Positions 13,213 through 25,466 are shown, counted from the first letter of the stretch. The stretch: DNA of 64,000 bases from an uncultured Holophagae bacterium (GCA_963718055.1 CAVQXZ010000001.1:848983-912982), one strand, 5' to 3'. The notes: generated by a model not told the origin, from the letters alone. Numbers and translations: made by a program.

Positions 13213-14517
13213 ATGGCGATACCCACCCTCCTCCGCCGGCTGATCTGGCTGCTCCTGATCGCTGCGATCATTGCTGTGGTCGTCGTGCTCGTCCTCAAGC
13301 GGCGTGGGGCCGTCGAGGAGTCGGCCTACCGCACGTCGCCGGTCGATCGCGGCGACATCACGATGACGGTCACCGCCACCGGCTCGCTGTCCGCCGTGAC
13401 GACGGTCCAGGTCGGCAGCCAGGTGTCGGGCATCATCCGGGCGCTGTACGCCGACTTCAACACTGCGGTGCGCGCGGGCCAGGTCCTGGCCGAGCTCGAC
13501 CCGACGCCGTTCCAGGCCCGAGTGGAGCAGCGGCGCGCCGACGTCGTCCAGGCCGAGGTCCAGCTGCGCAACGCCGAGATCGCCTTCCACCGCCAGGAGC
13601 GGCTGCTGGCCGCCGGACTGACCTCGCAGGCCGAGTACGACGCGGCCGAGGCCGCCGCCGACGGCGCCGAGGCGCTGGTCGGGCAGGCGCAGGCGGCGCT
13701 CAGCCAGTCCGAGACCGACCTCAGCTACACGGTCATCCGGTCGCCGATCGACGGGGTGGTGGTCTCGCGCCAGTACGACGTCGGCCAGACCGTGGCCGCC
13801 TCCTTCCAGGCGCCGACCCTGTTCACGATCGCCCAGGATCTGACCAGGATGCAGGTCGAGGCCGACGTCGACCAGGCCGACATCGGCCGGATCCACACCG
13901 GCCAGGTCGCGCGCTTCACCGTCGACGCGTACCCCGAGGAGGAGTTCCGCGGCACCATCACCCAGGTCCGGCTCAATGCCACGACCAACGTCAACGTCGT
14001 GACCTATCCGGTGATCATCGAGGTGGCGAACCCGGACGGCCGGCTGCGGCCCGAGATGACCGCTGACGTCACCATCGAGGTTGCGACCGTGCGTGACGTC
14101 CTGCGGGCGCCCAACGCGGCGCTTCGCTTCCGTCCGACCGAAACCGGAGACTCGGAGTCGACCGGCGGCGGGTCTGCTCGCGGCGGCGGCGCCGGCAGCA
14201 CCATGCAGGGGCCCGCAGCCGCAACCGGCCGCGGCGGCTTCCAGGGACCCCGCTCGCCGGGATCCGGCGACCGGCCAGACGCGCCTGCCGCTTCCGGGCA
14301 ACCGGGCGACGCCGAGCCCGGCGTGGTCATGCGAACGGTCTACCTTCTCGACGCGGCCGGTGCGCCGGCGCCGACCCGGATCCGCGCCGGGCTCTCCGAC
14401 GGCCGCTTCACCGAGGTCCTTGGCGGCGAGCTGAGGGAGGGCGACGCCGTCGTTGTCGGTCTTGCCACGGCGCGCGTCAACTCGACCGGCGGGCGGCCGC
14501 CGATGCGCGGGTTCTAG
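13213..14517 (+). CDS. Efflux transporter periplasmic adaptor (HlyD/MacA family)
   Basis: N-terminal anchor LIWLLLIAAIIAVVVVLVL, then VTATGSLSAVTTVQVGSQVSGII, a coiled-coil hairpin, and YTVIRSPIDGVVVSRQYDVGQTV. A Gly/Pro-rich insert lies near the C-terminus. Confidence 0.9.
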   Translation: MAIPTLLRRLIWLLLIAAIIAVVVVLVLKRRGAVEESAYRTSPVDRGDITMTVTATGSLSAVTTVQVGSQVSGIIRALYADFNTAVRAGQVLAELDPTPFQARVEQRRADVVQAEVQLRNAEIAFHRQERLLAAGLTSQAEYDAAEAAADGAEALVGQAQAALSQSETDLSYTVIRSPIDGVVVSRQYDVGQTVAASFQAPTLFTIAQDLTRMQVEADVDQADIGRIHTGQVARFTVDAYPEEEFRGTITQVRLNATTNVNVVTYPVIIEVANPDGRLRPEMTADVTIEVATVRDVLRAPNAALRFRPTETGDSESTGGGSARGGGAGSTMQGPAAATGRGGFQGPRSPGSGDRPDAPAASGQPGDAEPGVVMRTVYLLDAAGAPAPTRIRAGLSDGRFTEVLGGELREGDAVVVGLATARVNSTGGRPPMRGF

Positions 14518-15234
14518 ATGGCGCTCGTCGTGCTCGACGACGTCGTCAAGATCTACCGCATGGGCGAGGTCGAGGTGCGCGCCCTCGCCGGCGTCAGCCT
14601 GGCGGTCGAGGCCGGTGAGTTCGTCGCGATCATGGGCGCGTCCGGATCCGGCAAGTCGACCCTGATGAACATCCTCGGCTGCCTCGACCGGCCGACCTCG
14701 GGCAGCTACCGGCTCGACGGGATCGACGTCGCGTCGCTCGACTCGAATGCCCGGGCCGAGATCCGCAACGCGAAGATCGGTTTCGTGTTCCAGAGCTTCA
14801 ATCTGCTGGCGCGCACCTCGGCGCTGGAGAACGTCGAGCTGCCCCTGATCTACGGCACCGGGGCGGTCGGTGGGGGCGAACGGCTCCGCAGGTCCGCTCA
14901 GGCCCTGGCCCAGGTCGGTCTCGAGGGGCGCGAGCACCACTTCCCGTCGCAGCTGTCGGGCGGCCAGCAGCAGCGGGTGGCGATTGCCCGCGCCCTGGTC
15001 ACCGATCCGGCCATCCTGCTCGCCGACGAGCCGACCGGGAACCTCGACACCGCGACCTCGAGCGAGGTGATGCAGGTGCTGCGCGTGCTCAACGCCGCGG
15101 GCAAGACGATCATCCTGATCACCCACGAGGCGGACATCGCCGACTGGGCCAGACGCCGGGTGGTGCTGCGCGACGGCCGGATCGTCGAGGATGTCATCAC
15201 CGGCCGCGAGGTGGGCGTGGGGGGTGCCGCATGA
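14518..15234 (+). CDS. ABC transporter ATP-binding protein (MacB/LolD-type)
   Basis: Walker A GASGSGKST, signature LSGGQQQRVAIARAL, Walker B ILLADEPTGNLD. It starts directly after the adaptor stop. Confidence 0.95.
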   Translation: MALVVLDDVVKIYRMGEVEVRALAGVSLAVEAGEFVAIMGASGSGKSTLMNILGCLDRPTSGSYRLDGIDVASLDSNARAEIRNAKIGFVFQSFNLLARTSALENVELPLIYGTGAVGGGERLRRSAQALAQVGLEGREHHFPSQLSGGQQQRVAIARALVTDPAILLADEPTGNLDTATSSEVMQVLRVLNAAGKTIILITHEADIADWARRRVVLRDGRIVEDVITGREVGVGGAA

Positions 15235-16460
15235 GGATCGTGACCGTACGACTGGCCAGCATCGCCCGGGTCGGCCTCAAGGCGATCGTGCGCAACCCGA
15301 TGCGCTCGAGCCTGACCATGCTCGGGATCATCATCGGCGTCGCCTGCGTGATCACCATGGTGTCGGTGGGGACCGGCGCCTCACGGTCGGTGCAGGAGGC
15401 CATCGGCGCGCTGGGGACCAACTTCATCATGGTCATTCCCGGGGTGGTGACCCAGTCCGGCGCGCACATCCACGGCGGCGAGTCGACCCTGACCGAGGAC
15501 GACGTGGAGGCGATCCGGCGCGAGTGCCCGTCGGTCGCCTACGTTTCGGCCGGGGTCCGGACCGGCGGCCAGGTGGTGGCCGGCGGCCTCAACTGGGGCA
15601 CGACGATCTACGGCGCCGACGTCGACTGGCCGCTGATCCGCGCCTGGAACACCAGCCAGGGCGAGTTCTTCACCGCGGCCGAGGTTCGCTCGGGCGCCAA
15701 GGTATGCGTGATCGGCGCTGCGGTCGCCGAGGCCCTGTTCCCGGACGGCAAAGCGGTCGGCCAGGTGGTCCGGGTGAACAACGTGCCGTTCCACGTGCTC
15801 GGGGTGCTCGAGCGCAAGGGCGGCACCACCATGGGCACCGACCAGGATGACCAGCTGGTCGCGCCCTACACCACGGTCATGAAGCGGGTGATGGGCACGA
15901 CGCGGATCGGCATCATCTACGTCGCGGCGGTGTCGGCGGACGCGGTCGCCCGCGCCCAGGAGGAGATCGAGGCGCTGCTGCGCCAGCGCCACCGCATCGC
16001 GGAGGGCCAGCCGAGCGACTTCATGATGCGTTCCCAGGAGGAGATCGCGAGCCGTGCCGCGCAGAGCTCGCGCACCATGTCGCTGCTGCTCGGCTCGGTG
16101 GCCGCGATCTCGCTGCTGGTCGGCGGCATCGGGATCATGAACATCATGCTGGTCTCGGTCACCGAGCGGACCCGCGAGATCGGGGTGCGGCTCGCGGTCG
16201 GCGCCAAGGCGCGCCACATCCTGCTCCAGTTCCTGCTCGAGGCGGTGATCCTGTCAGTGGTCGGCGGCGGGCTCGGGGTGGTGCTCGGCTTCGGCGCGAG
16301 CCGGGTCATCTCCAAGATCGCCGGCTGGCCGACGATCGTCGGCCTGGGCTCGGTCGGCCTGGCCTTCGGCTTCGCCGCCCTGGTCGGGGTGTTCTTCGGC
16401 TTCTACCCGGCGCGCCGGGCGTCCCGGCTCGACCCGATCGAGGCCCTGCGCTACGAGTGA
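15231..16460 (+). CDS. ABC transporter permease (MacB periplasmic-core / FtsX-like)
   Basis: 409 aa. The C-terminal FtsX-type TM bundle reads GGIGIMNIMLVSVTERTREIGVRLAVGA ... FFGFYPARRASRLDPIEALRYE. ATGA overlap with the ATPase gene. Confidence 0.9.
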   Translation: MRIVTVRLASIARVGLKAIVRNPMRSSLTMLGIIIGVACVITMVSVGTGASRSVQEAIGALGTNFIMVIPGVVTQSGAHIHGGESTLTEDDVEAIRRECPSVAYVSAGVRTGGQVVAGGLNWGTTIYGADVDWPLIRAWNTSQGEFFTAAEVRSGAKVCVIGAAVAEALFPDGKAVGQVVRVNNVPFHVLGVLERKGGTTMGTDQDDQLVAPYTTVMKRVMGTTRIGIIYVAAVSADAVARAQEEIEALLRQRHRIAEGQPSDFMMRSQEEIASRAAQSSRTMSLLLGSVAAISLLVGGIGIMNIMLVSVTERTREIGVRLAVGAKARHILLQFLLEAVILSVVGGGLGVVLGFGASRVISKIAGWPTIVGLGSVGLAFGFAALVGVFFGFYPARRASRLDPIEALRYE

Positions 16461-16551
16461 CCCGCGGCTGGCCGACCGCCACGCCAGCCTCGGCTGAGCG
16501 GCCACGGTCCGCGACGGTCCAGTGTTGGGGCGCCGCGCGGACAGGCCCCGG

Positions 16552-16983
16552 TCACCGCGGACCGAAGAACGAGCGGTCGAGGGACAACCGTCCCGGGCCC
16601 AGAGCGATCAGCAGCAGCGCGATGCAGAAGTAGACCGCCGCCAGCTCTGAGCTCTGGCCGCCGGTCATCGACACGAACGGGTCGCCGCGCACGATCGCGT
16701 GGAACGAGAACGCGACGGCCATCGTTGAGGCGACGCCGAGCGAGGCCAGCGGCGTCAGGAAGCCGAGGATCCACGCCAGGCCGCCGCCGAACTCGGAGAG
16801 CGCCGCCAGCGCCTGAAAAGGGCCCGGGGCGAAGGCGTCCGGCCCCATCCAGCCGAACGGGTTCTGGATCTTCCCCCAGCCGTGCAGCATGAAGGCGAGG
16901 CCGGCCACCACCCTGAGGAACAGCAGCGCCAGGTCGGCAAAGGGTGAGTGGTCGGGGACGGAGACGAGCCGCTTGATGTCCAT
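16552..16983 (-). CDS. DoxX-family membrane protein
   Basis: ATG at 16983 (GAAGGAGG upstream). LALLFLRVVAGLAFMLHGWGKI... with four TM segments, typical of DoxX. Confidence 0.8.
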   Translation of the reverse strand: MDIKRLVSVPDHSPFADLALLFLRVVAGLAFMLHGWGKIQNPFGWMGPDAFAPGPFQALAALSEFGGGLAWILGFLTPLASLGVASTMAVAFSFHAIVRGDPFVSMTGGQSSELAAVYFCIALLLIALGPGRLSLDRSFFGPR

Positions 16984-17417
16984 CGTGCCTCCTTCATCGT
17001 GGAGCTCGGGCCGCGGTTGCGTTTTGATGACGCTTTCGTCATGACGGCATTTCTCCCGGCACCAGAACACCACCGCTCAGGGGCGATGGCTGGCCTTCCG
17101 GCGCGCGAGCTCGCGCCCCCGGTGTGTGGGAGTGTCTGATCCACTGTACTGGAAAGCCGCCGGGACGCCATCCGGATTCCATCGCCGCCCCGCGGCTCGC
17201 ATCGCTGAGCTGCAGGTGGCGTGATGGCTTCATCCTTCCGACCGGTGGCGTGTGGGCACGCAGCCCGTTCAGTTCCCAGGCCCAGGACCGGCGCGGAGGG
17301 CGTCCGTGCGCGCTCCTGTGTACTTCCCGGCCGAGTCATCGGTACCTGTGAGGTGAGCTTCGGGGGAGGGACACCGGCGGTCGCAGCCGATCGCGGCCGC
17401 GGCGGTGCATCAAGCCA

Positions 17418-19907
17418 TTGCAGTTCTTCAAGTCTGACGTGACCGACTGTCTCCAGCAGCTCTCCAAGGGCGGGGTGACCGCCGAGGAGCGCGACCGGAT
17501 GCTGGAGGTGCTGCGCCAGGCCGACAGCCTGAGACCGCGCGATGTGGTCTGGATGGCCTTTCGCCCCGATCGCGTCCTGCGCGAGGCCTGTGGCGAGCTC
17601 CTGGGGCCACATCGCACGGCCGCCACCGTGGACCGCTTCATCGCCGAGGCCCGCAACAAGTCGGAGGCCGCGCTCCGAGCCGGCGCAGCGGTGCTGTTCT
17701 CGCTTCGGATCCCGGGCGTCGAGGGTCATCTGACAGAGCGGATCGCGTCGGAACGGGAGGAGGTCAGAGAAACCGCCCGGCGCCTCGTCGCCCAGGCCCC
17801 GGTCAGCGCCGGCCTGACGCCCCTGCTCTGGCAGCTGGTCGAGCGCGGCCGGGAGACGGCAGAACGCCTGCCGTTCGTCAAACAGCTTGCCACGGCGGAG
17901 ATGTCACCGCAGGCACTCCACCGCTGGAAGAAGATTGCCGCCGACGCAGATCCCGAGATCAGGGCCGCCGCCCTCAAGGTGCTCGCCGACAGGGTGCCGG
18001 ACGAGGCCGCCGACCAGATCGTCAATCAGCTCGCCTACGTGGACTACGACACCCAGCAGCACCTGATCGAGGCCCTTGCCAAGGTGGCCCGGAGCCAGGG
18101 CCCGGCCTTCATCGACCGTCTGCTGCCCCTGATGGCCTCGGGCGAGGCCGGCATCCGCTCGGCGGTCGTGAAGATCCTCATCGAGATGGAGGATCGTCAC
18201 GAGCTCGTAAAGCGCTACCTGAAGTTTTCGAAAACGCTTGCCGGATGGGCACGGGATCGGGCCCTGGACTCGATGCGGGAGTTCGGCGAGGATCTGGTGG
18301 AGCCCACCGTCGAGCTGCTGTCGGATCCGGACGAGGAGATTCGCGCCCTGGCGCTTGCCGTGGTGGGCGCCTTCGAGGACCCGCGGATCATCCCCGCCAC
18401 CGTCGAGCTGCTCGGCGCAGAGGACTGGTGGCTGCGGGTCTGCGCCGCCGACATTCTCGGGCAGTTCAACGACCCGCGGGCGGTGGATGCCCTGATGGCG
18501 GCGCTCGACGACGCCGAGGCTCGCTGGGCCGCGGTCGAGGCGCTCGGCCGGATCGGCGACCCGCGATGCCTGCCCAGGCTGTCGAAGCTGCTCAACGATC
18601 CGGCGCCCGAAGTTCGTATCGAGGTGCTGCTGGCGCTCCCCAAGTTCAACCACCCGAAGGTCCTCGAAGCCTTGCAGCGGGTCGCCAAGTCGGATCCGCA
18701 TCGCAGCGTCCGGGCCCGCGCCCTGGAGATCGCGGAAGAGGTGGCCGGCCGGGATCAGGCGTCGATCGAGGGCGCCGAGGAGCTGCGGACCGAGATCCAG
18801 AAGGCCCAGAGCGGGGCCGGCGAGCCACAGCTCAACACCCTTCTCGCCTCCACCCGCAACCAGGGCTGCTCCGACCTTCACCTCGCAGTCTCGTGCCCGC
18901 CAATCGTGCGCCACGGAGGCGCGCTGATCAGCGCTGACGAGGCGCCGTACAACGAGCAACAGGTCGCGCGGATGATCCGCGAGGTCCTCACCGACGAGCA
19001 GTGGGCCCGGTTGGAGAAGGAGAAGCAGCTCGACTTCTGCCACTACGTCCCCGGCGCCGGACGCTACCGCTCGAACGTCTTCCTCGATCAGCGGGGCTAC
19101 AGCGCGGTCTTCCGGGTCATCCCGGACCAGCCGCCGACGATCAGCGAGATCGGCCTTCCCGGCCACCTGGCGAAGATCGCCTCGATCCACCAGGGCCTGG
19201 TCGTGGTCTGTGGCCCATCCGGGTGTGGGAAGTCCACGACTGTCGCGGCCCTGGTCAACCTGCTCAACGAGACGCGACAGCACCACGTCATCACGCTCGA
19301 GGAACCGGTAGAGTTCATCCACCCGTTCAAGAACTGCCTGATCAACCAGCGCGAGATCGGCTCGGACAGTCGCTCCTACGCACGCGCCCTGCGCGCCGCC
19401 TTGCGCGAGAACCCGGATGTCATCGTGATCGGGGACCTGCGGGACACCGAGACCGTGTCCCTGGCCCTCACCGCGGCCGAGACCGGTCATCTCGTGCTCG
19501 CGACCATGAGCTCGACCAGCGCGCCGAAGGCGATCAACCGCATCATCTCGAGCTTCTCCGCCGACGAGCAACCGCAGGTGAGGGCTGGGCTGGCCGAGTC
19601 GCTCAAGTACGTCATCGCTCAGCGGCTGCTGGCGCTCGACGGCACCAGGAAACGGGTCGCCTGCTTCGAGGTCCTGGTGGGGACAGTATCCGTGGCGCAC
19701 ATGATCACCGAGGAGAAGACCCACCAGCTTCCGTCGGCGATGCAGATCGGCAAGGCCCAGGGCATGCAGACCTTCGACGACTCTCTCCGGGAGCTGCTCC
19801 GGCTCGGCAAGATCTCGGCCGAGAGCGCGTACCTCTACGCCACGAACCGCGAGGACTTCGAAGGCCTGGTGGCGCCGGAGTTCCTCGAGTCGAGGACCTT
19901 CCGATGA
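17418..19907 (+). CDS. Fusion of a roughly 470-aa HEAT/PBS-lyase-like repeat domain to a PilT-family hexameric ATPase
   Basis: The N-terminal half carries repeated DPxxEVRxxAxxALGxxxDPRAxxxL-type units (e.g. DPDEEIRALALAVVGAFEDPRIIP, DPRAVDALMAALDD, DPAPEVRIEVLLAL, DPHRSVRARALE). The C-terminal half is PilT-like: CSDLHLAV, Walker A GPSGCGKST, ITLEEPVEF, Walker B VIVIGDLRD, LVLATMSSTSA. Confidence 0.8.
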   Translation: MQFFKSDVTDCLQQLSKGGVTAEERDRMLEVLRQADSLRPRDVVWMAFRPDRVLREACGELLGPHRTAATVDRFIAEARNKSEAALRAGAAVLFSLRIPGVEGHLTERIASEREEVRETARRLVAQAPVSAGLTPLLWQLVERGRETAERLPFVKQLATAEMSPQALHRWKKIAADADPEIRAAALKVLADRVPDEAADQIVNQLAYVDYDTQQHLIEALAKVARSQGPAFIDRLLPLMASGEAGIRSAVVKILIEMEDRHELVKRYLKFSKTLAGWARDRALDSMREFGEDLVEPTVELLSDPDEEIRALALAVVGAFEDPRIIPATVELLGAEDWWLRVCAADILGQFNDPRAVDALMAALDDAEARWAAVEALGRIGDPRCLPRLSKLLNDPAPEVRIEVLLALPKFNHPKVLEALQRVAKSDPHRSVRARALEIAEEVAGRDQASIEGAEELRTEIQKAQSGAGEPQLNTLLASTRNQGCSDLHLAVSCPPIVRHGGALISADEAPYNEQQVARMIREVLTDEQWARLEKEKQLDFCHYVPGAGRYRSNVFLDQRGYSAVFRVIPDQPPTISEIGLPGHLAKIASIHQGLVVVCGPSGCGKSTTVAALVNLLNETRQHHVITLEEPVEFIHPFKNCLINQREIGSDSRSYARALRAALRENPDVIVIGDLRDTETVSLALTAAETGHLVLATMSSTSAPKAINRIISSFSADEQPQVRAGLAESLKYVIAQRLLALDGTRKRVACFEVLVGTVSVAHMITEEKTHQLPSAMQIGKAQGMQTFDDSLRELLRLGKISAESAYLYATNREDFEGLVAPEFLESRTFR

Positions 19908-20971
19908 CCGAGGTCGGGTACCGCATCGACCGCTTCCTGCGGCTCATGAACGATCGTGGGGCATCAGACCTTCACCTGGCCGTCGGGAGGCCGCCGATGC
20001 TGCGGGTGTCGGGCGCCATGGAGCAGATCCGCTACCGGATCGTGATGGAGGCGGACTTCCAACACATGCTGCAGCCGATTGCGCCGCCCGAACGCTGGCA
20101 GGAGTTCGAGGCCACCGGTGACACCGACTTCGCCTACGAGGTGCCGAGTCTTGCCCGCTTCCGGGTCAACCTGTTCCGGCAACGGCGCGGGTCCGCGGCC
20201 GTGTTTCGGGTCATTCCCAGCACGACCATGACCGTCGACCAGCTCGGGCTGCCGCCCCAGATCCGGCGCCTGGCCGACATCGAGTCCGGCTTGGTCCTGG
20301 TCACCGGGCCCACCGGCTCGGGCAAGTCCACCACCCTTGCCGCGATCGTCGACCTGATCAACGAATCCCGCGGCTATCACATCATCACTCTCGAGGATCC
20401 CATCGAGTTCGTGCATCCCAACAAGCGCAGCCTGATGCACCAGCGCGAGATGGGAGCACACGCGACCAGCTTCAGCGAGGCCCTTCGGGCCGCCGGGCGC
20501 GAGGACCCCGATCTCGTCCTGGTGGGTGAGATGCGCGATCTCGAGACGATCTCGATGGCGCTCGCCGCCGCCGAGCGCGGCACGGTCGTGTTCGGCACCC
20601 TCCACACCAACAGCGCGGTCAAGACCATCGATCGGATCATCGGTGTGTTCCCGGCCAGCGAGCAGAACGGCATCCGCAACGTGCTCGGCGAGTCGTTGCG
20701 GGCGGTGGTCGCGCAGCAGCTCCTGCCGCGGGTCGGCGGCGGCCGGGTGGCGGCGGTAGAGATCCTGTTCTGCACCCCGGCGATCGGCAACATGATCCGC
20801 GAAGGCAACACCCGGCAGATCACCTCGGCCATCCAGACCGGCTCGAAGAGCGGGATGATCGAGATGGACACCGCTATCCGCGCCCTCTTCGACGCCGGCC
20901 TGGTCAGCGCCCGCGCCGCCTACGACAAGGCCATCAACAAGGAGCTCTTCGAGGACCTGCTGGGGAGCTGA
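19904..20971 (+). CDS. pilT: Type IV pilus retraction ATPase PilT-family protein
   Basis: ATG 19904 overlaps the previous stop (ATGA). ASDLHLAVGRPPMLRVSG, Walker A GPTGSGKST, ITLEDPIEFVH, LVLVGEMRDLETI, GTLHTNSAVKTIDRII, and AIGNMIREGN (the PilT AIRNLIRE-type motif). Confidence 0.9.
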   Translation: MTEVGYRIDRFLRLMNDRGASDLHLAVGRPPMLRVSGAMEQIRYRIVMEADFQHMLQPIAPPERWQEFEATGDTDFAYEVPSLARFRVNLFRQRRGSAAVFRVIPSTTMTVDQLGLPPQIRRLADIESGLVLVTGPTGSGKSTTLAAIVDLINESRGYHIITLEDPIEFVHPNKRSLMHQREMGAHATSFSEALRAAGREDPDLVLVGEMRDLETISMALAAAERGTVVFGTLHTNSAVKTIDRIIGVFPASEQNGIRNVLGESLRAVVAQQLLPRVGGGRVAAVEILFCTPAIGNMIREGNTRQITSAIQTGSKSGMIEMDTAIRALFDAGLVSARAAYDKAINKELFEDLLGS

Positions 20972-21214
20972 CGCGGGCCGCCGCGCCACCCGGAACCGCC
21001 CGCTCGCCTCGGCCGCGGCATCTATTGGCTGGCGCCACAGGGCAGCGGCGGACGTTGCTCACGATCCCAGAGTGGTAGCGCAGCCACTGGCGCCGCCGTG
21101 ATCCGGACTGGTAGCATCGAGATCAGCCGCGGCGAGCGAAAACCGGAGGACTGACGCGCTGGGTCAAACGACGACGGTGACGACGCCGTCGAGATCACGA
21201 TTCGCGGAGGCACC

Positions 21215-22405
21215 ATGAGTCGATGGCCGGTGCGATGGTGGGCGACGGCCGGAGCGGCAGCGGTCGCGTTCGCGGCGGTGGCCGGTGCGCAGGACATGAC
21301 CGCCGGAGTCGTGACCGACCCGCCAGCGCCGGTGGCCGGCGGCGTCGCGACCTTCACCGCCACCTACGAGAACCTGGGGCCGGGGGAAGCGGCTGACGTC
21401 AACGTGAGTGTGCTGGTCCCCATCCAGCCGCAAACCTGGCCGCCAGGGTCGGACGGCTTCGTCGCGATGATCGATTCGACCCTTGGCACCGACATCAACG
21501 GCAACCAGGTGTTCTGGAGCTTCGATACGGACTCGCTGTGCGACTACTACAAGCTGGAGCTCCAGGAGCCGAACACGACCGGCGACCAGTTCATGATCCC
21601 GAACCCTTTTCCGGCCGGGCACAGTGGATCCTTCACCTGGGAGATGCCGATCATCCCGATGGAGGGCATCGACGTCGGGCGGGTCGTCATCACCGAGCCG
21701 GAGAGCCTGCGCAACAGCTTCTCGGTCAACGGCGCGCAGTGGGTGGAGTACCCGTGGCTGCACGGCCATGCCGGCCTCTACAACCTGGTTGCGGCCGCCG
21801 GCCTGTGCGACGAGGGTGGCGCAGACTGCGCCGATCTCCAGGCCTGCATCGGCGACCGTTTGTGGGCGATCGAGCCCCTTGTAGCCGAGCTCGAGATCGG
21901 CCAGGGCAACGACGGGGAACCGACCCTTGGGTGCGGCACCCAGCTCGTCGACTTCACAGCCGGGAGGATCGCGATCCTGCGCCGAGGCGTCTGCAACTTC
22001 ACCGTCAAGTTCGAAAACGCGCAGAACGCCGGGGCTCTCGGGGTCATCCTGGTCAATGACGGCCGCTGCGGCGATGTGCCGGACGCGGATCCGGACGAGT
22101 GCACGATCACCATGGGCGGCGACCCTGGCACCGGCTATCTGCTCGATGTCCCGTCGGTGCTCATGAGCCGCCGCCAGGGCGAGGAGCTGATCTCGGCGCT
22201 GCAGGGGGGGCAACGGGTCCGCGCGGCGATCGGCGCCATTCCGGGCGACAGCGTCGACCTGTTCACGCGGGTCACCTCCGACGTGGACCCGGACCTCACC
22301 AACGACTTCGTGGTGACCAGGGTGTTGCTCGGGGACGTGGGGCTGCTGTTCGCCGATGGCTTCGAGTCCGGCGACACCTCGGTGTGGTCGGCGACCGTGC
22401 CGTAG
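21215..22405 (+). CDS. Secreted PA (protease-associated) domain protein with the C-terminal FESGDTSxWSATVP tag
   Basis: Signal peptide MSRWPVRWWATAGAAAVAFAAVAGAQD. PA-like segment FTAGRIAILRRGVCNFTVKFENAQNAGALGVILVND. Ends [24 protein letters not shown]. Confidence 0.8.
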   Translation: MSRWPVRWWATAGAAAVAFAAVAGAQDMTAGVVTDPPAPVAGGVATFTATYENLGPGEAADVNVSVLVPIQPQTWPPGSDGFVAMIDSTLGTDINGNQVFWSFDTDSLCDYYKLELQEPNTTGDQFMIPNPFPAGHSGSFTWEMPIIPMEGIDVGRVVITEPESLRNSFSVNGAQWVEYPWLHGHAGLYNLVAAAGLCDEGGADCADLQACIGDRLWAIEPLVAELEIGQGNDGEPTLGCGTQLVDFTAGRIAILRRGVCNFTVKFENAQNAGALGVILVNDGRCGDVPDADPDECTITMGGDPGTGYLLDVPSVLMSRRQGEELISALQGGQRVRAAIGAIPGDSVDLFTRVTSDVDPDLTNDFVVTRVLLGDVGLLFADGFESGDTSVWSATVP

Positions 22406-22484
22406 GAGCGCGAGGGGCATGGGCCCCTCGACGAGCGACTGGAGGCGGACTGCAGTGGGATTCGCTCTCGCTGGCACGGTCCGC

Positions 22485-23042
22485 ATGCTGCCGGCGGTGT
22501 ACGATGGAGGCGTCGTGGATTTCGAGCGAGTTCTTCGGCTGCTCAGCGGTTTCTTACAAGGGGCTTCCGTGGAGTGGGGAGTCATCGGAGGGCTCGCGAT
22601 GGCGGTTTACGGGCCGGGCAGGACGACGCTCGACGTCGACATCGTGGTCGACGGTGAGCATCAGGATGGCGTCATCGCCTTTCTCGAGTCGCAAGGCTAC
22701 ATGACGCTGCACCGGTCGACCGGCTACTCGAACCACCTCCACTCGGACCCCGACCTGGGCCGGGTGGACGTCGTGTACCTGAGGGGAGACACCAGCCGCA
22801 GTGTGCTGTCGGCGGCCACTGTAAGGCCGGGGCCCGGAGGCGCGCCGATACCGGTACCCCGCGCGGAGCACCTCGCGGCGATGAAGGCCTTCGCCATCAA
22901 CAATGACCCCCGGCGTGCAGCCCGCGAGCTTGCCGACATCCGCGACCTGCTGGCTGCGCCAGGCGTCGATCGCGATGAGGTCCGCGAGTACCTGATCCGC
23001 TATGGTCTGGAGGGTCTCCTTGACCGACTCGAAGACGCGTGA
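22485..23042 (+). CDS. Minimal nucleotidyltransferase-fold protein
   Basis: Part of ORF 22356..23042; the ATG at 22485 was chosen but the start is uncertain. GVIGGLAMAVYGPGRTTLDVDIVV fits the G-x-G...D-x-D NTase motif. Confidence 0.55.
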   Translation: MLPAVYDGGVVDFERVLRLLSGFLQGASVEWGVIGGLAMAVYGPGRTTLDVDIVVDGEHQDGVIAFLESQGYMTLHRSTGYSNHLHSDPDLGRVDVVYLRGDTSRSVLSAATVRPGPGGAPIPVPRAEHLAAMKAFAINNDPRRAARELADIRDLLAAPGVDRDEVREYLIRYGLEGLLDRLEDA

Positions 23043-23232: not shown

Positions 23233-23777
23233 CAGTGCGCGCCGACATCGTTTCGTCTCCGTCGGCGGCGCGAGCTCCGCCTGCCTGGCATTGTCCCTTG
23301 GGGAGTCCTTCCGAGTCTTGAAAACGGGACGTCCCGCTGCGGGAGCCGACGATCACCGACAGCGGCAAGATCATCGTCGACACCAACGACAAGTACACGT
23401 TCAGGCAGCAGCCCTGGTGACCACCGCCGATTCTCTCGTTCGCCGTCAGTCCGGCCACCGCGCTCCACGATCCGGATGGCGCGACGATCGAGCCGGGTGA
23501 GGCCGAGGACGATCCGATCGAGGTCCTGATCCCGGATCCGCTCGTCGATGAAGGTGCCGACGACGGAAGAAGACCCCTCATGGCATGTCGCACGCGCTCG
23601 CACGGGGAGTCCGGCGCCGGGCGGATGGTGAGCGCTTCCGGGTCGACCTCGGGAAGCCATGCCCACTTGACACGCGCCTTCCAGTGGGTGGCACCCTTTT
23701 TTGTGAGGCCTGACACGTGCTACGCCGTCATCCTCGGACACGATTTGACCGGACGTGGCCCTCTGCGTACGCTCGGA

Positions 23778-25466
23778 ATGGCAACTCCGAGGGAGGACGC
23801 CGTGCGTGGATCCAGCAACTCCCAGAGCGATGACCGCCGTGTCGGGCTCTGCGCCCGTGCCCTCGTCGTGCTCGGGCTCGCCGCTTTCTGCGACCCGGGG
23901 GTCGCCTTCGCCACCTGCAGCGGCGCGGGCAGGGCGTGGACCTGCACGGCCGGCAGCACGCGGGCGCAGGTGCAGGCAGTGATCGACGCTGCGGAGGACG
24001 AGGCGGTCGTCACCTTCGCCGCGGGCAGCTACGACTGGACCGGTGGCGTGATCAACCTGGGAGCGATCGACGGGGTGACCCTGAGGTGCGAGACGGTCGG
24101 GACCTGCCTCGTCGCCCACGACGGAAACCTCGTGTACAAGGACTTCGTCCCGGCGGCGTCGGACCGACTGCACCGGATCACCGGGTTCTCCTTCACCGGG
24201 ACGTCGGGCACCGGCACGATCTGGTTCCTCGGTCAGAACGACCTGACCCGGATTCGGATCGACCACAACACGTTCACGGAGACGAGCGGGAGCGGATGCA
24301 AGGTGGCCGTCTTCTTCGGCGCCATCGATCCCGGCTTCGACGGCAACATGTTCGGAGTCGTGGACAACAACACGTTCACGTCCACCAGCTCGTGGAACCA
24401 CATGGGCGTCAAGAACCTGTCGGGTCAGGACGCGGCCTGGACCCTCGGCCTGCCGGGCAGCGCGCGCAACCTGTTCATCGAGGACAACGTTTTCACGTAC
24501 TCGGCCCTGAACTACAACGGCGGTTGCGGCTGCATGGATGCCTGGAACGGTGGAGCCACGGTCTTTCGGTTCAACACGACGACGAACTGCCGCGTCGTGT
24601 CCCACGGCGTCTGCCACGGAGGCCCGCCCAACTTCGAGGTCTACCACAACGACATCACGACGCCCGATGGCTACCGGAACATCCATCATCAGGGGTCGGG
24701 CGAGATGTTCGTGTTCCACAACGATCTCAACAACGGCAACGAGATCGCCCTGCTGCACTACAGATCCTGCCCCCCCGAGCAGACCGGATGCTCCATGCCG
24801 CGCTGCGACGGGAGCCAGCCGATCGACGGCAACCGGTTGCCGACCTCCACCTACTACGGCTATCCCTGCTATCGCCAGCCCGGCCGGGACGCGAGCGGCA
24901 CGCTGCGGCCGATCTTCGCCTGGGACAACGTCCACGACGGCGGCAAGTCCGACATCGACTTCCAGGACGCCTGGGGTTGCACGAACCCGTCGCCGCACGA
25001 CCACGTTCAGGCCGACCGCGACTACTACAACGCCGTCTCCGCGCAAGCGCAGATCTCGCCGACCAGCCCCTTCGACGGCACGACCGGGATGGGTTTCGGC
25101 AGCCTGGCGAACCGTCCGCCGACCTGCACGACGACCTCCGAGGCCGCGGACGCCGGCCACGGCGGAGTGGGGTACTGGGCGACCGATGTCGGCAACTGGA
25201 ACGGCGGAGCGGGGGCCGAGCAGGGCAGGCTCTATCTGTGCAGCTCCGAGGACACCTGGACCGAGTACTACGAGCCCTATCGCTACCCGCACCCGCTGCG
25301 CGGAGTGCTGCTGATCGACGGTTTCGAGTCCGGCGACACCTCGGCGTGGAGCGCAACGGTACCGTGGGAACAGTCCGAAAGCACCAGGAGGCTGCAGCCT
25401 GCTCGGGTTTGGAGGGGAGCCACGGCACCCCTTAGCGGCAGTGACAGATGGGAGGAACGGTCATGA
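23778..25466 (+). CDS. Secreted right-handed beta-helix (pectate-lyase-fold-like) protein carrying the tag, followed by a 33-codon read-through extension
   Basis: ATG 23778 in ORF 23580..25466. Signal-like RRVGLCARALVVLGLAAFCDPGVAFA. Beta-helix-like turns (ITGFSFTGTSGTGTIWF, IRIDHNTFTE, VVDNNTFTS, LFIEDNVFTY). The tag [19 protein letters not shown] is followed by TGG (25365-25367) where all paralogous tags have a stop. Confidence 0.75.
   Translation: MATPREDAVRGSSNSQSDDRRVGLCARALVVLGLAAFCDPGVAFATCSGAGRAWTCTAGSTRAQVQAVIDAAEDEAVVTFAAGSYDWTGGVINLGAIDGVTLRCETVGTCLVAHDGNLVYKDFVPAASDRLHRITGFSFTGTSGTGTIWFLGQNDLTRIRIDHNTFTETSGSGCKVAVFFGAIDPGFDGNMFGVVDNNTFTSTSSWNHMGVKNLSGQDAAWTLGLPGSARNLFIEDNVFTYSALNYNGGCGCMDAWNGGATVFRFNTTTNCRVVSHGVCHGGPPNFEVYHNDITTPDGYRNIHHQGSGEMFVFHNDLNNGNEIALLHYRSCPPEQTGCSMPRCDGSQPIDGNRLPTSTYYGYPCYRQPGRDASGTLRPIFAWDNVHDGGKSDIDFQDAWGCTNPSPHDHVQADRDYYNAVSAQAQISPTSPFDGTTGMGFGSLANRPPTCTTTSEAADAGHGGVGYWATDVGNWNGGAGAEQGRLYLCSSEDTWTEYYEPYRYPHPLRGVLLIDGFESGDTSAWSATVPWEQSESTRRLQPARVWRGATAPLSGSDRWEERS

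Follow-up and report, generated by a model that had tools for sequence, protein, structure and literature searches.

Two overlapping genes, here called ORF1 and ORF2 (for open reading frame, ORF), were found in a stretch of 64,000 nucleotides of DNA from an uncultured Holophagae bacterium (GCA_963718055.1 CAVQXZ010000001.1:848983-912982), to which we refer as the window. ORF1 codes for an ATPase of the PilT family that carries a long N-terminal solenoid of HEAT repeats, and ORF2 codes for a canonical PilT. We propose that the two proteins form a paired retraction motor of type IVa pili, specific to Acidobacteriota, and not a new secretion device; we give this reading a probability of about 0.55. 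The following facts about the module are new: no member of the HEAT-fused family to which ORF1 belongs has kept the histidine that coordinates the gamma-phosphate, the fusion is strictly coupled to a canonical PilT, and a sister family with canonical active site resides in pilus loci. In the literature searched, nothing relevant was found that described the HEAT-PilT module, or PilT in Acidobacteria, before.

Domain architecture of the two proteins

Pfam models recognize HEAT_2 (E 2e-37, 127.7 bits, three stretches), HEAT_PBS (49.6 bits), HEAT and T2SSE in ORF1. The HEAT matches are above cutoff, and recognition by HEAT_2 and HEAT_PBS is limited to roughly residues 160-440. The AlphaFold2 model, built from an alignment of 61 sequences (predicted local distance difference test score, pLDDT, 81.5), is composed of a continuous alpha-solenoid (residues 1-445), a linker (446-470) and a PilT fold (471-829). 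The N-terminal domain modelled alone (pLDDT 89.2) is all helical, with about 28 helices. Foldseek related this domain only to generic HEAT/ARM protein-binding scaffolds (alphaRep, PP2A A subunit, CAND1, karyopherins), and the ATPase domain to Geobacter PilT4 and Pseudomonas aeruginosa PilT (PaPilT), with target-normalised template modelling (TM) scores of 0.84-0.91. The HEAT domain contains an invariant patch, FSKTLAGWARDRALDSM, at residues 270-286 and a DWW motif at residues 336-338.

Both proteins belong to the PilT/PilU family as defined by NCBIfam model TIGR01420 (pilT_fam), whose curated cutoff is 319.1 bits: ORF1 scored 397.7 bits over residues 472-813 and ORF2 436.9 bits. Models of other secretion ATPases (GspE, PilB, DotB, VirB11, TadA, FlaI) stayed far under their own cutoffs, for example GspE with 106.8 bits against 630 and DotB with 122 against 463. 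In phmmer comparisons the ATPase domain of ORF1 reached 312.7 bits with PaPilT (3JVU) and 225.9 bits with PilU (9N32), and ORF2 reached 370.5 bits with PaPilT. The closest solved structures of both the ORF1 ATPase domain and ORF2 are PilTs.

Coordinates, domains and the ATGA stop/start overlap agree with a preliminary description of this DNA, which had reported a HEAT::PilT fusion translationally coupled to a PilT gene; only the solenoid, estimated there at about 470 residues, is shortened to about 445.

Conservation of the pair

Genomes were scanned with an alignment of the N-terminal domain as query, one genome per species, and the counts of loci given below come from the best 80. The fusion is encoded in at least 130 species-level genomes, among them the closed chromosomes OY970284.1 and OY970380.1. 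The best 80 carriers are all metagenome-assembled genomes (MAGs) of Acidobacteriota, save two short contigs that are probably mis-binned; no cultured organism is among them. Lineages with the module include Holophagae, Thermoanaerobaculia, Vicinamibacteria, Ca. Sulfomarinibacteraceae and 'gp7' bins; the window is nearest to Holophagae (74-88% identity of N-terminal domain). A protein search with ORF1 yielded 768 matches at E<=1e-10. Identity ranges from 56 to 97% among the best 120, all of which combine HEAT with T2SSE; nearly all are 818-866 amino acids long, with four exceptions (696, 743, 801 and 998 amino acids). Those that bear a name are labelled just 'PilT' or 'PilT/PilU family ATPase' and come from Holophagae, Thermoanaerobaculia and Vicinamibacteria MAGs.

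In 68 of the best 80 loci the fusion is followed by a PilT with 70-94% identity to ORF2. The sole clear exception with enough room for the second gene is L070; three other loci (L045, L046 and L055) look frameshifted. In the 62 loci with both genes intact enough for the junction to be measured, the genes overlap by 4 nucleotides (25 loci) or 1 nucleotide (16 loci) at 41 junctions, and in 11 further loci they are separated by up to 16 nucleotides. Within the module, conservation is highest in the downstream PilT (mean pairwise identity 0.78), followed by the ATPase domain of the fusion (0.74); identity of the N-terminal domain to that of the window ranges from 45 to 89% across loci. These data support the view that ORF1 and ORF2 are inherited together as a single unit with coupled translation. 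When about 940 ORFs from 84 loci were clustered all against all, no conserved neighbour emerged beyond the pair; the next clusters, a Ser/Thr kinase-WD40 protein and a small secreted protein, occur in 14 and 12 of the 80 loci, respectively.

Catalytic anatomy of the two ATPases

Residues were aligned to PaPilT numbering. A scorable ATPase domain of the fusion is present in 76 of the 80 loci, the rest being cut by contig ends or frameshifted, and these 76 domains were compared together with the 68 downstream PilTs. Invariant in both sets are the Walker A lysine (K136), the Asp-box glutamates (E159, E163), the arginine fingers (R80, R82, R97) and the Walker B region residues D198, R206 and D207. 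The sets differ at three other positions. Catalytic glutamate E204 is invariant in the downstream PilTs; among the fusions it is Glu in 54 and Asp in 22, the latter being the state of the window's clade (Asp673 in ORF1). H229, the gamma-phosphate-coordinating histidine (bioRxiv 10.1101/672212), is likewise invariant in the downstream PilTs and is never His in the fusions, which carry Asn (55) or Ser (21). The reverse holds for H222 of the His box: His is invariant in the fusions, and the downstream PilTs have Thr (67) or Ser (1). The best 120 protein matches of ORF1 agree with this: 78 have Asn, 41 have Ser and 1 has Asp at position 229, and 59 have Asp at position 204. Both the catalytic glutamate and the gamma-phosphate histidine are thus replaced in ORF1 (Asp673, Ser698), and both are kept in ORF2 (Glu209, His234). 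The two ORF1 substitutions had escaped the preliminary description.

The AIRNLIRE motif (positions 288-295) has been modelled at the interface between PilT and the platform protein PilC, and it is not conserved in PilU (bioRxiv 10.1101/2025.10.30.685630). Its equivalent in the downstream PilTs, AIGNMIRE, fits at 6 of 8 positions and is conserved in all 68 orthologues. The fusions have consensus SVANMIRD, and ORF1 itself, with SVAHMITE, fails the motif. The helix had been reported as absent from ORF1; it is present, and it is the motif that is degenerate. Similarly, the ORF1 Walker A sequence GPSGCGKST was read correctly, but it is hardly unusual, being a clade variant of the family consensus GPSGSGKST: the Cys occurs in 9 of 76 loci, and Lys and Thr are invariant. 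ORF2 has GPTGSGKST at this site and Thr227 in place of H222. The main catalytic changes of ORF1 lie in the His box and Walker B, not in Walker A.

Histidine losses in the His box are reciprocal, as ORF1 retains H222 and lacks H229, and ORF2 lacks H222 and retains H229. This reciprocity was considered as evidence of complementation in trans and was downgraded, because position 222 varies in ordinary PilTs. The 150 nearest 50%-identity representatives of ORF2 supplied about 160 PilT domains for alignment; about 32 of these have Leu, Met, Val, Ile, Gln or Asn at this position, and for this reason the ORF2 side of the reciprocity was given no weight. A residue other than His at position 229 is rare among the same 150 representatives; most cases are first halves of tandem PilT'-PilT proteins.

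A sister family and other PilT fusions

A second family of HEAT-PilT fusions, founded on P0244 (829 amino acids), counts 125 members or more, from Thermoanaerobaculia and other Acidobacteriota. Its N-terminal domain is 29% identical to that of the window over 305 residues. Like the window's module, the sister modules of Thermoanaerobaculia consist of a fusion of about 825-830 amino acids with homologous N-terminal domain and a PilT that overlaps it by 4 nucleotides and has a residue other than His at position 222. In contrast to the sister family, the window's family lacks H229, often has the E204D substitution and is usually unlinked from pilus genes. The catalytic set of the sister fusions (K136, E204, H222, H229) is canonical in 113 of 118 members. 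All five sister loci examined (L084-L088) contain the downstream PilT with 4-nucleotide overlap; the one that was translated (L084) has Leu222 and His229.

The surroundings of all five sister loci are type IVa pilus gene clusters, in which a GspH/FimT-like gene, N-methyl minor pilins, PilW, PilX_N and a protein of about 1800-1950 amino acids occur together with a PilS-like kinase, a sigma54 response regulator, an A24 prepilin peptidase and one to three T2SSG-type pilins. One Thermoanaerobaculia MAG sample (ERZ25039463) holds two different sister modules on separate contigs (L085 and L086), each among its own pilin, prepilin peptidase and minor pilin genes. Sample identifiers of seven contigs, compared for signs that one genome holds both the window's and the sister family, revealed no coincidence between the two.

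Besides these families, P0229 (917 amino acids, lower GC) combines HEAT_2, in five stretches, with a PilT that has a canonical His box. As it resembles the window's N-terminal domain at the level of repeats only, HEAT-PilT fusions may have arisen repeatedly. Tandem PilT'-PilT proteins of about 710-740 amino acids in a single chain (P0123, P0131, P0132, P0134, P0135, P0142) and a DUF4388(PATAN)-PilT'-PilT protein of 1024 amino acids (P0121) present another type of fusion. In the tandem proteins it is the first half that diverges, in some cases without an equivalent of H229; the second half is canonical and has an AIRNLIRE-like motif. Over-extended ORF calls in high-GC genomes lengthen proteins of public PilT clusters (e.g. 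P0124-P0129) and can mimic N-terminal fusions. Because of this inflation, protein lengths from the representative search were not used as evidence of fusion without a Pfam check.

Linkage to type IV pilus genes

Genes of type IV pili (pilB, pilC, secretin, prepilin peptidase, PilW-like) are found within 10 kb of the module in 5 of about 80 loci of the window's family. In three of them (L079, L083, L060) the module is divergently adjacent to pilC (T2SSF) and a pilB-like gene (MshEN with T2SSE); in L079 and L083 three unknown ORFs and then a secretin gene follow beyond pilB and pilC. In the other two loci, L078 and L070, the nearby pilus genes are those for a prepilin peptidase and a PilW-like protein. 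It is common for pilT/pilU loci to be unlinked from other pil genes. Because of this habit of pilT and pilU, the five pilus-linked loci of the window's family and the pilus clusters around all five sister loci, the claim that the module is an orphan with a non-pilus client is unsupported. The fusion is common, and part of its family is embedded in pilus loci, which largely matches the pattern that the preliminary description had named as speaking against its reading.

Genomic context of the window

Coordinates of the module and its flanks are summarized in Table 1. Both ORFs have the codon-position bias in GC content typical of real genes (the window has 68% GC). The reading frame of ORF2 is open for about 900 nucleotides further upstream, giving a 656-amino-acid ORF at 19001-20971 (+) that overlaps ORF1 out of frame. 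A scan of positions 16400-21400 for sigma-70-like promoters, terminators and Rfam families gave no match.

Table 1. Positions of the HEAT-PilT module, its motifs and its flanking genes in the window
Feature	Position	Strand	Remarks
ORF1, fusion of HEAT solenoid and PilT-family ATPase	17418..19907	+	829 amino acids, TTG start
ORF2, canonical PilT	19904..20971	+	355 amino acids; T2SSE by Pfam
ATGA stop/start overlap of ORF1 and ORF2	19904..19907	+	read from sequence
Divergent intergenic region between DoxX (-) and ORF1 (+), 344 bp; presumed operon promoter region	17074..17417	+	putative promoter role
N-terminal alpha-solenoid of ORF1, about 14 HEAT-like repeats, residues 1-445	17418..18752	+	AlphaFold2, Pfam, Foldseek
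Linker between solenoid and ATPase of ORF1, residues 446-470	18753..18827	+	poorly conserved alignment columns; AlphaFold2 secondary structure
PilT-type ATPase domain of ORF1, residues 471-829	18828..19907	+	TIGR01420, phmmer, Foldseek
Walker A of ORF1, GPSGCGKST	19212..19238	+	translation
Asp673 of ORF1 at catalytic Glu site (PaPilT E204), in DVIVIGDLRD	19434..19436	+	alignment to PaPilT
His box of ORF1, AAETGHLVLATMSST; His691 (= H222) kept, Ser698 (= H229) lost	19473..19517	+	alignment
AIRNLIRE equivalent of ORF1, SVAHMITE, degenerate	19689..19712	+	alignment
DoxX gene	16552-17073	-	Pfam; upstream flank of module
PA-domain ORF with C-terminal tag	21215-22405	+	downstream flank of module

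Among about 45 ORFs of the window, Pfam recognized TrkAH, SOD and SPFH proteins, MacAB-type efflux, DoxX, LVIVD-repeat proteins, complex I genes and others; it found no pilin, pilB/C/M-Q, secretin or gsp genes, as had already been stated in the preliminary description together with the identity of the two flanking genes. PADLOC, used as a test of membership in defence systems, gave only generic HEAT and P-loop matches.

The downstream flank of the module is one of at least seven window ORFs with a common tag, GFESGDTS[AVT]WS, which include PA-domain, LVIVD-repeat and InhA-like MAM proteins. The tag is located at nucleotides 22358, 25320, 26390 and 32309 of the plus strand and 3343, 4574 and 62499 of the minus strand. 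In six ORFs it is followed by four residues and a stop codon. In the ORF at 23580-25466 another 37 codons follow the tag, perhaps because a stop was lost or the frame shifted. Between two of the tagged exoprotein genes lies an ORF (22419-23042, +) that resembles AbiEii or another nucleotidyltransferase. A regular-expression search of six-frame translations of related loci found the tag outside the window in two other loci only (L006 and L026). In the closest relative, L005, whose module proteins are 89-94% identical to those of the window, synteny covers the TrkA, SOD and SPFH genes upstream, and the downstream genes are unrelated. The association of module and tag is positional, as the preliminary description had stated, and not conserved.

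Genes of MacA/MacB-type ABC efflux lie within 10 kb of the module, in varying orientation, in 5-7 of the 80 loci from Holophagae, Ca. Sulfomarinibacteraceae and Vicinamibacteria (window 13213-16460; L002/L003 17393-22051; L013; L081). This proximity is probably due to chance, because Acidobacteriota have many MacB paralogues. A gene for SecA, split into two ORFs (L090 7541-9957), precedes the HEAT-PilT gene by 44 bp in L090, and another one is found about 6.7 kb upstream of the module in a Vicinamibacteria locus (L002/L003 931-3330).

Proposed mechanism and its alternatives

Cooperation of two retraction ATPases is a live question of type IV pilus research, for which PilT/PilU has so far been the only paradigm. 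The module described here offers a second, independently derived two-ATPase arrangement that is widespread in a major soil phylum. The ORF1 family presents natural "mutations" at the very residues that experimenters alter (H229, E204), in addition to a large scaffold domain, and the sister family with its canonical site serves as a built-in evolutionary control.

In the arrangement that we favour, ORF2 would be the working PilT: having the complete catalytic set and an AIRNLIRE-like motif, it would engage the PilC platform and drive pilus depolymerisation. ORF1 would be an accessory paralogue of PilT, kept in a fixed ratio to ORF2 through translational coupling. With its nucleotide-binding residues retained, its catalytic centre altered and its presumably PilC-facing motif degenerate, ORF1 probably turns over ATP in a reduced or altered manner, avoids the platform and works via ORF2. 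By analogy with PilU, it would most likely contact ORF2 as a second hexameric ring stacked on PilT, and the six HEAT arms of this ring would extend into the cytoplasm, where regulators or localisation factors could dock. Such a stacking order would be consistent with that of the tandem PilT'-PilT and PATAN-PilT'-PilT proteins, where the divergent half comes first. The preliminary description had envisaged an adaptor-regulated or heterohexameric motor with a non-pilus client. A paired or adaptor-bearing motor is reasonable, because the two ATPases are coupled and co-inherited and the HEAT domain offers a generic scaffold for binding proteins; the orphan status and the non-pilus client are the parts that we abandon.

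Several observations weigh against a paired pilus retraction motor with a PilU-like accessory ring. About 75 of the 80 loci of the window's family have no pilus gene within 10 kb and the 64-kb window has none at all, and this evidence covers the window and the locus neighbourhoods. In contrast to the PilT-PilU arrangement, the accessory gene is located upstream of pilT and not downstream of it. ORF1 is closer to PilT than to PilU (312.7 vs 225.9 bits), and it lacks the long C-terminal tail with which PilU wraps PilT: beyond the end of PaPilT it has about 15 residues only. The partner residues of the PilT-PilU contact are D2/E53 and R35/K36; the R35 and K36 positions of PilU-binding PilT are Glu and Gln in ORF2. 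Attenuated catalysis by ORF1 is a prediction only, because Asn or Ser at position 229 may still allow hydrolysis. Relative placement of the domains in the single-chain AlphaFold2 model of ORF1 is unreliable because its predicted TM score (pTM) is 0.56.

The same strict pairing could also reflect a mixed ring, an A3B3 heterohexamer in which the HEAT-bearing altered subunit alternates with the canonical one. Translational coupling implies synthesis in a 1:1 ratio, both proteins keep the packing-unit interface residues known from literature (T216/S, E219, R239, E258, R294), the His-box histidines are lost reciprocally, and single chains with tandem PilT'-PilT do exist. We nevertheless consider a mixed ring unlikely. 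The H222 half of the reciprocity is within normal PilT variation. Since the active site of PilT-like ATPases is built largely within one protomer, complementary histidine losses would not be repaired in trans, which counts against this arrangement. Three or six arms of 445 residues on the N-face of a platform-engaging ring could, moreover, clash with the machine, and heterohexamers of PilT and PilU have been tested and argued against (PMC6762196). ORF1 might instead be no motor at all but a pseudo-ATPase, a nucleotide-sensing regulator or sequestering partner by which the ORF2 PilT is gated or localised. Loss of H229 in every member, Asp at E204 in about half of them, the degenerate AIRNLIRE and a HEAT scaffold typical of adaptors would all suit such a role. 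The nucleotide-binding and arginine-finger residues are, however, all invariant, the constraint on the ATPase domain (0.74) fits a working ATPase better than a relic, and in the sister family a fully canonical catalytic site goes with the same architecture; a non-motor ORF1 is accordingly rather improbable.

Still another explanation uncouples the module from pili altogether and lets it power a different client, be it another type IV filament or export of the tagged exoproteins. It would account for the lack of pilus genes in the window and in most loci of its family, and for the position of the module directly upstream of tagged-protein genes. Adjacency to tagged genes is, however, lost in L005 and other Holophagae loci, the tag occurs in two other loci only while the module is present in several acidobacterial lineages, the informative neighbours are pilus genes, and the PADLOC matches are only generic ones. 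We regard this explanation as very improbable.

Returning to the paired retraction motor, a more specific version of it can be put forward tentatively, as possible but doubtful. The HEAT-bearing PilT' may be an independently evolved analogue of PilU, a retuned second ring whose HEAT arms form a docking hub that couples retraction to partners (polarity, signalling, cargo), and it might serve a specialised or non-pilus type IV filament. The last point is suggested by the fact that the family has drifted from pilus loci while its canonical sister stays inside them.

Comparison with known systems

PilU is an accessory ATPase dependent on PilT; it has no AIRNLIRE, and under PilT it adds a second hexamer in head-to-tail stacking (PMC6762196; bioRxiv 10.1101/2025.10.30.685630). 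The PilT-PilU pairs of V. cholerae, P. aeruginosa and A. baylyi resemble the present module in that two paralogues of the PilT family are adjacent and co-transcribed. In both systems a canonical partner with AIRNLIRE engages, or in the present module would engage, the platform; the AIRNLIRE of the other partner is degenerate, and this partner is proposed to work exclusively via the first. ORF1 shares with PilU the unconserved AIRNLIRE and the operon with pilT (ATGA overlap), with the gene order reversed. In contrast to PilU, it carries an N-terminal HEAT solenoid of 445 residues and lacks the gamma-phosphate His. Judged by its sequence, ORF1 is not a PilU orthologue, and the analogy with PilU, if it holds, would therefore be convergent.

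The tandem PilT'-PilT proteins share with the operon the order of a divergent ATPase first and a canonical one second, which implies a fixed 1:1 partnership. In contrast to the operon they are covalent fusions, contain no HEAT repeats and are uncharacterised. N-extended ATPases of the same superfamily, PilB and MshE with MshEN and Thermus PilF with GSPII domains, resemble ORF1 in having regulatory or docking N-terminal domains on a hexameric ATPase of T2SSE fold. They are assembly ATPases whose N-terminal domains bind nucleotide or cyclic di-GMP, whereas ORF1 is of the retraction type and bears a HEAT solenoid without a recognised ligand site.

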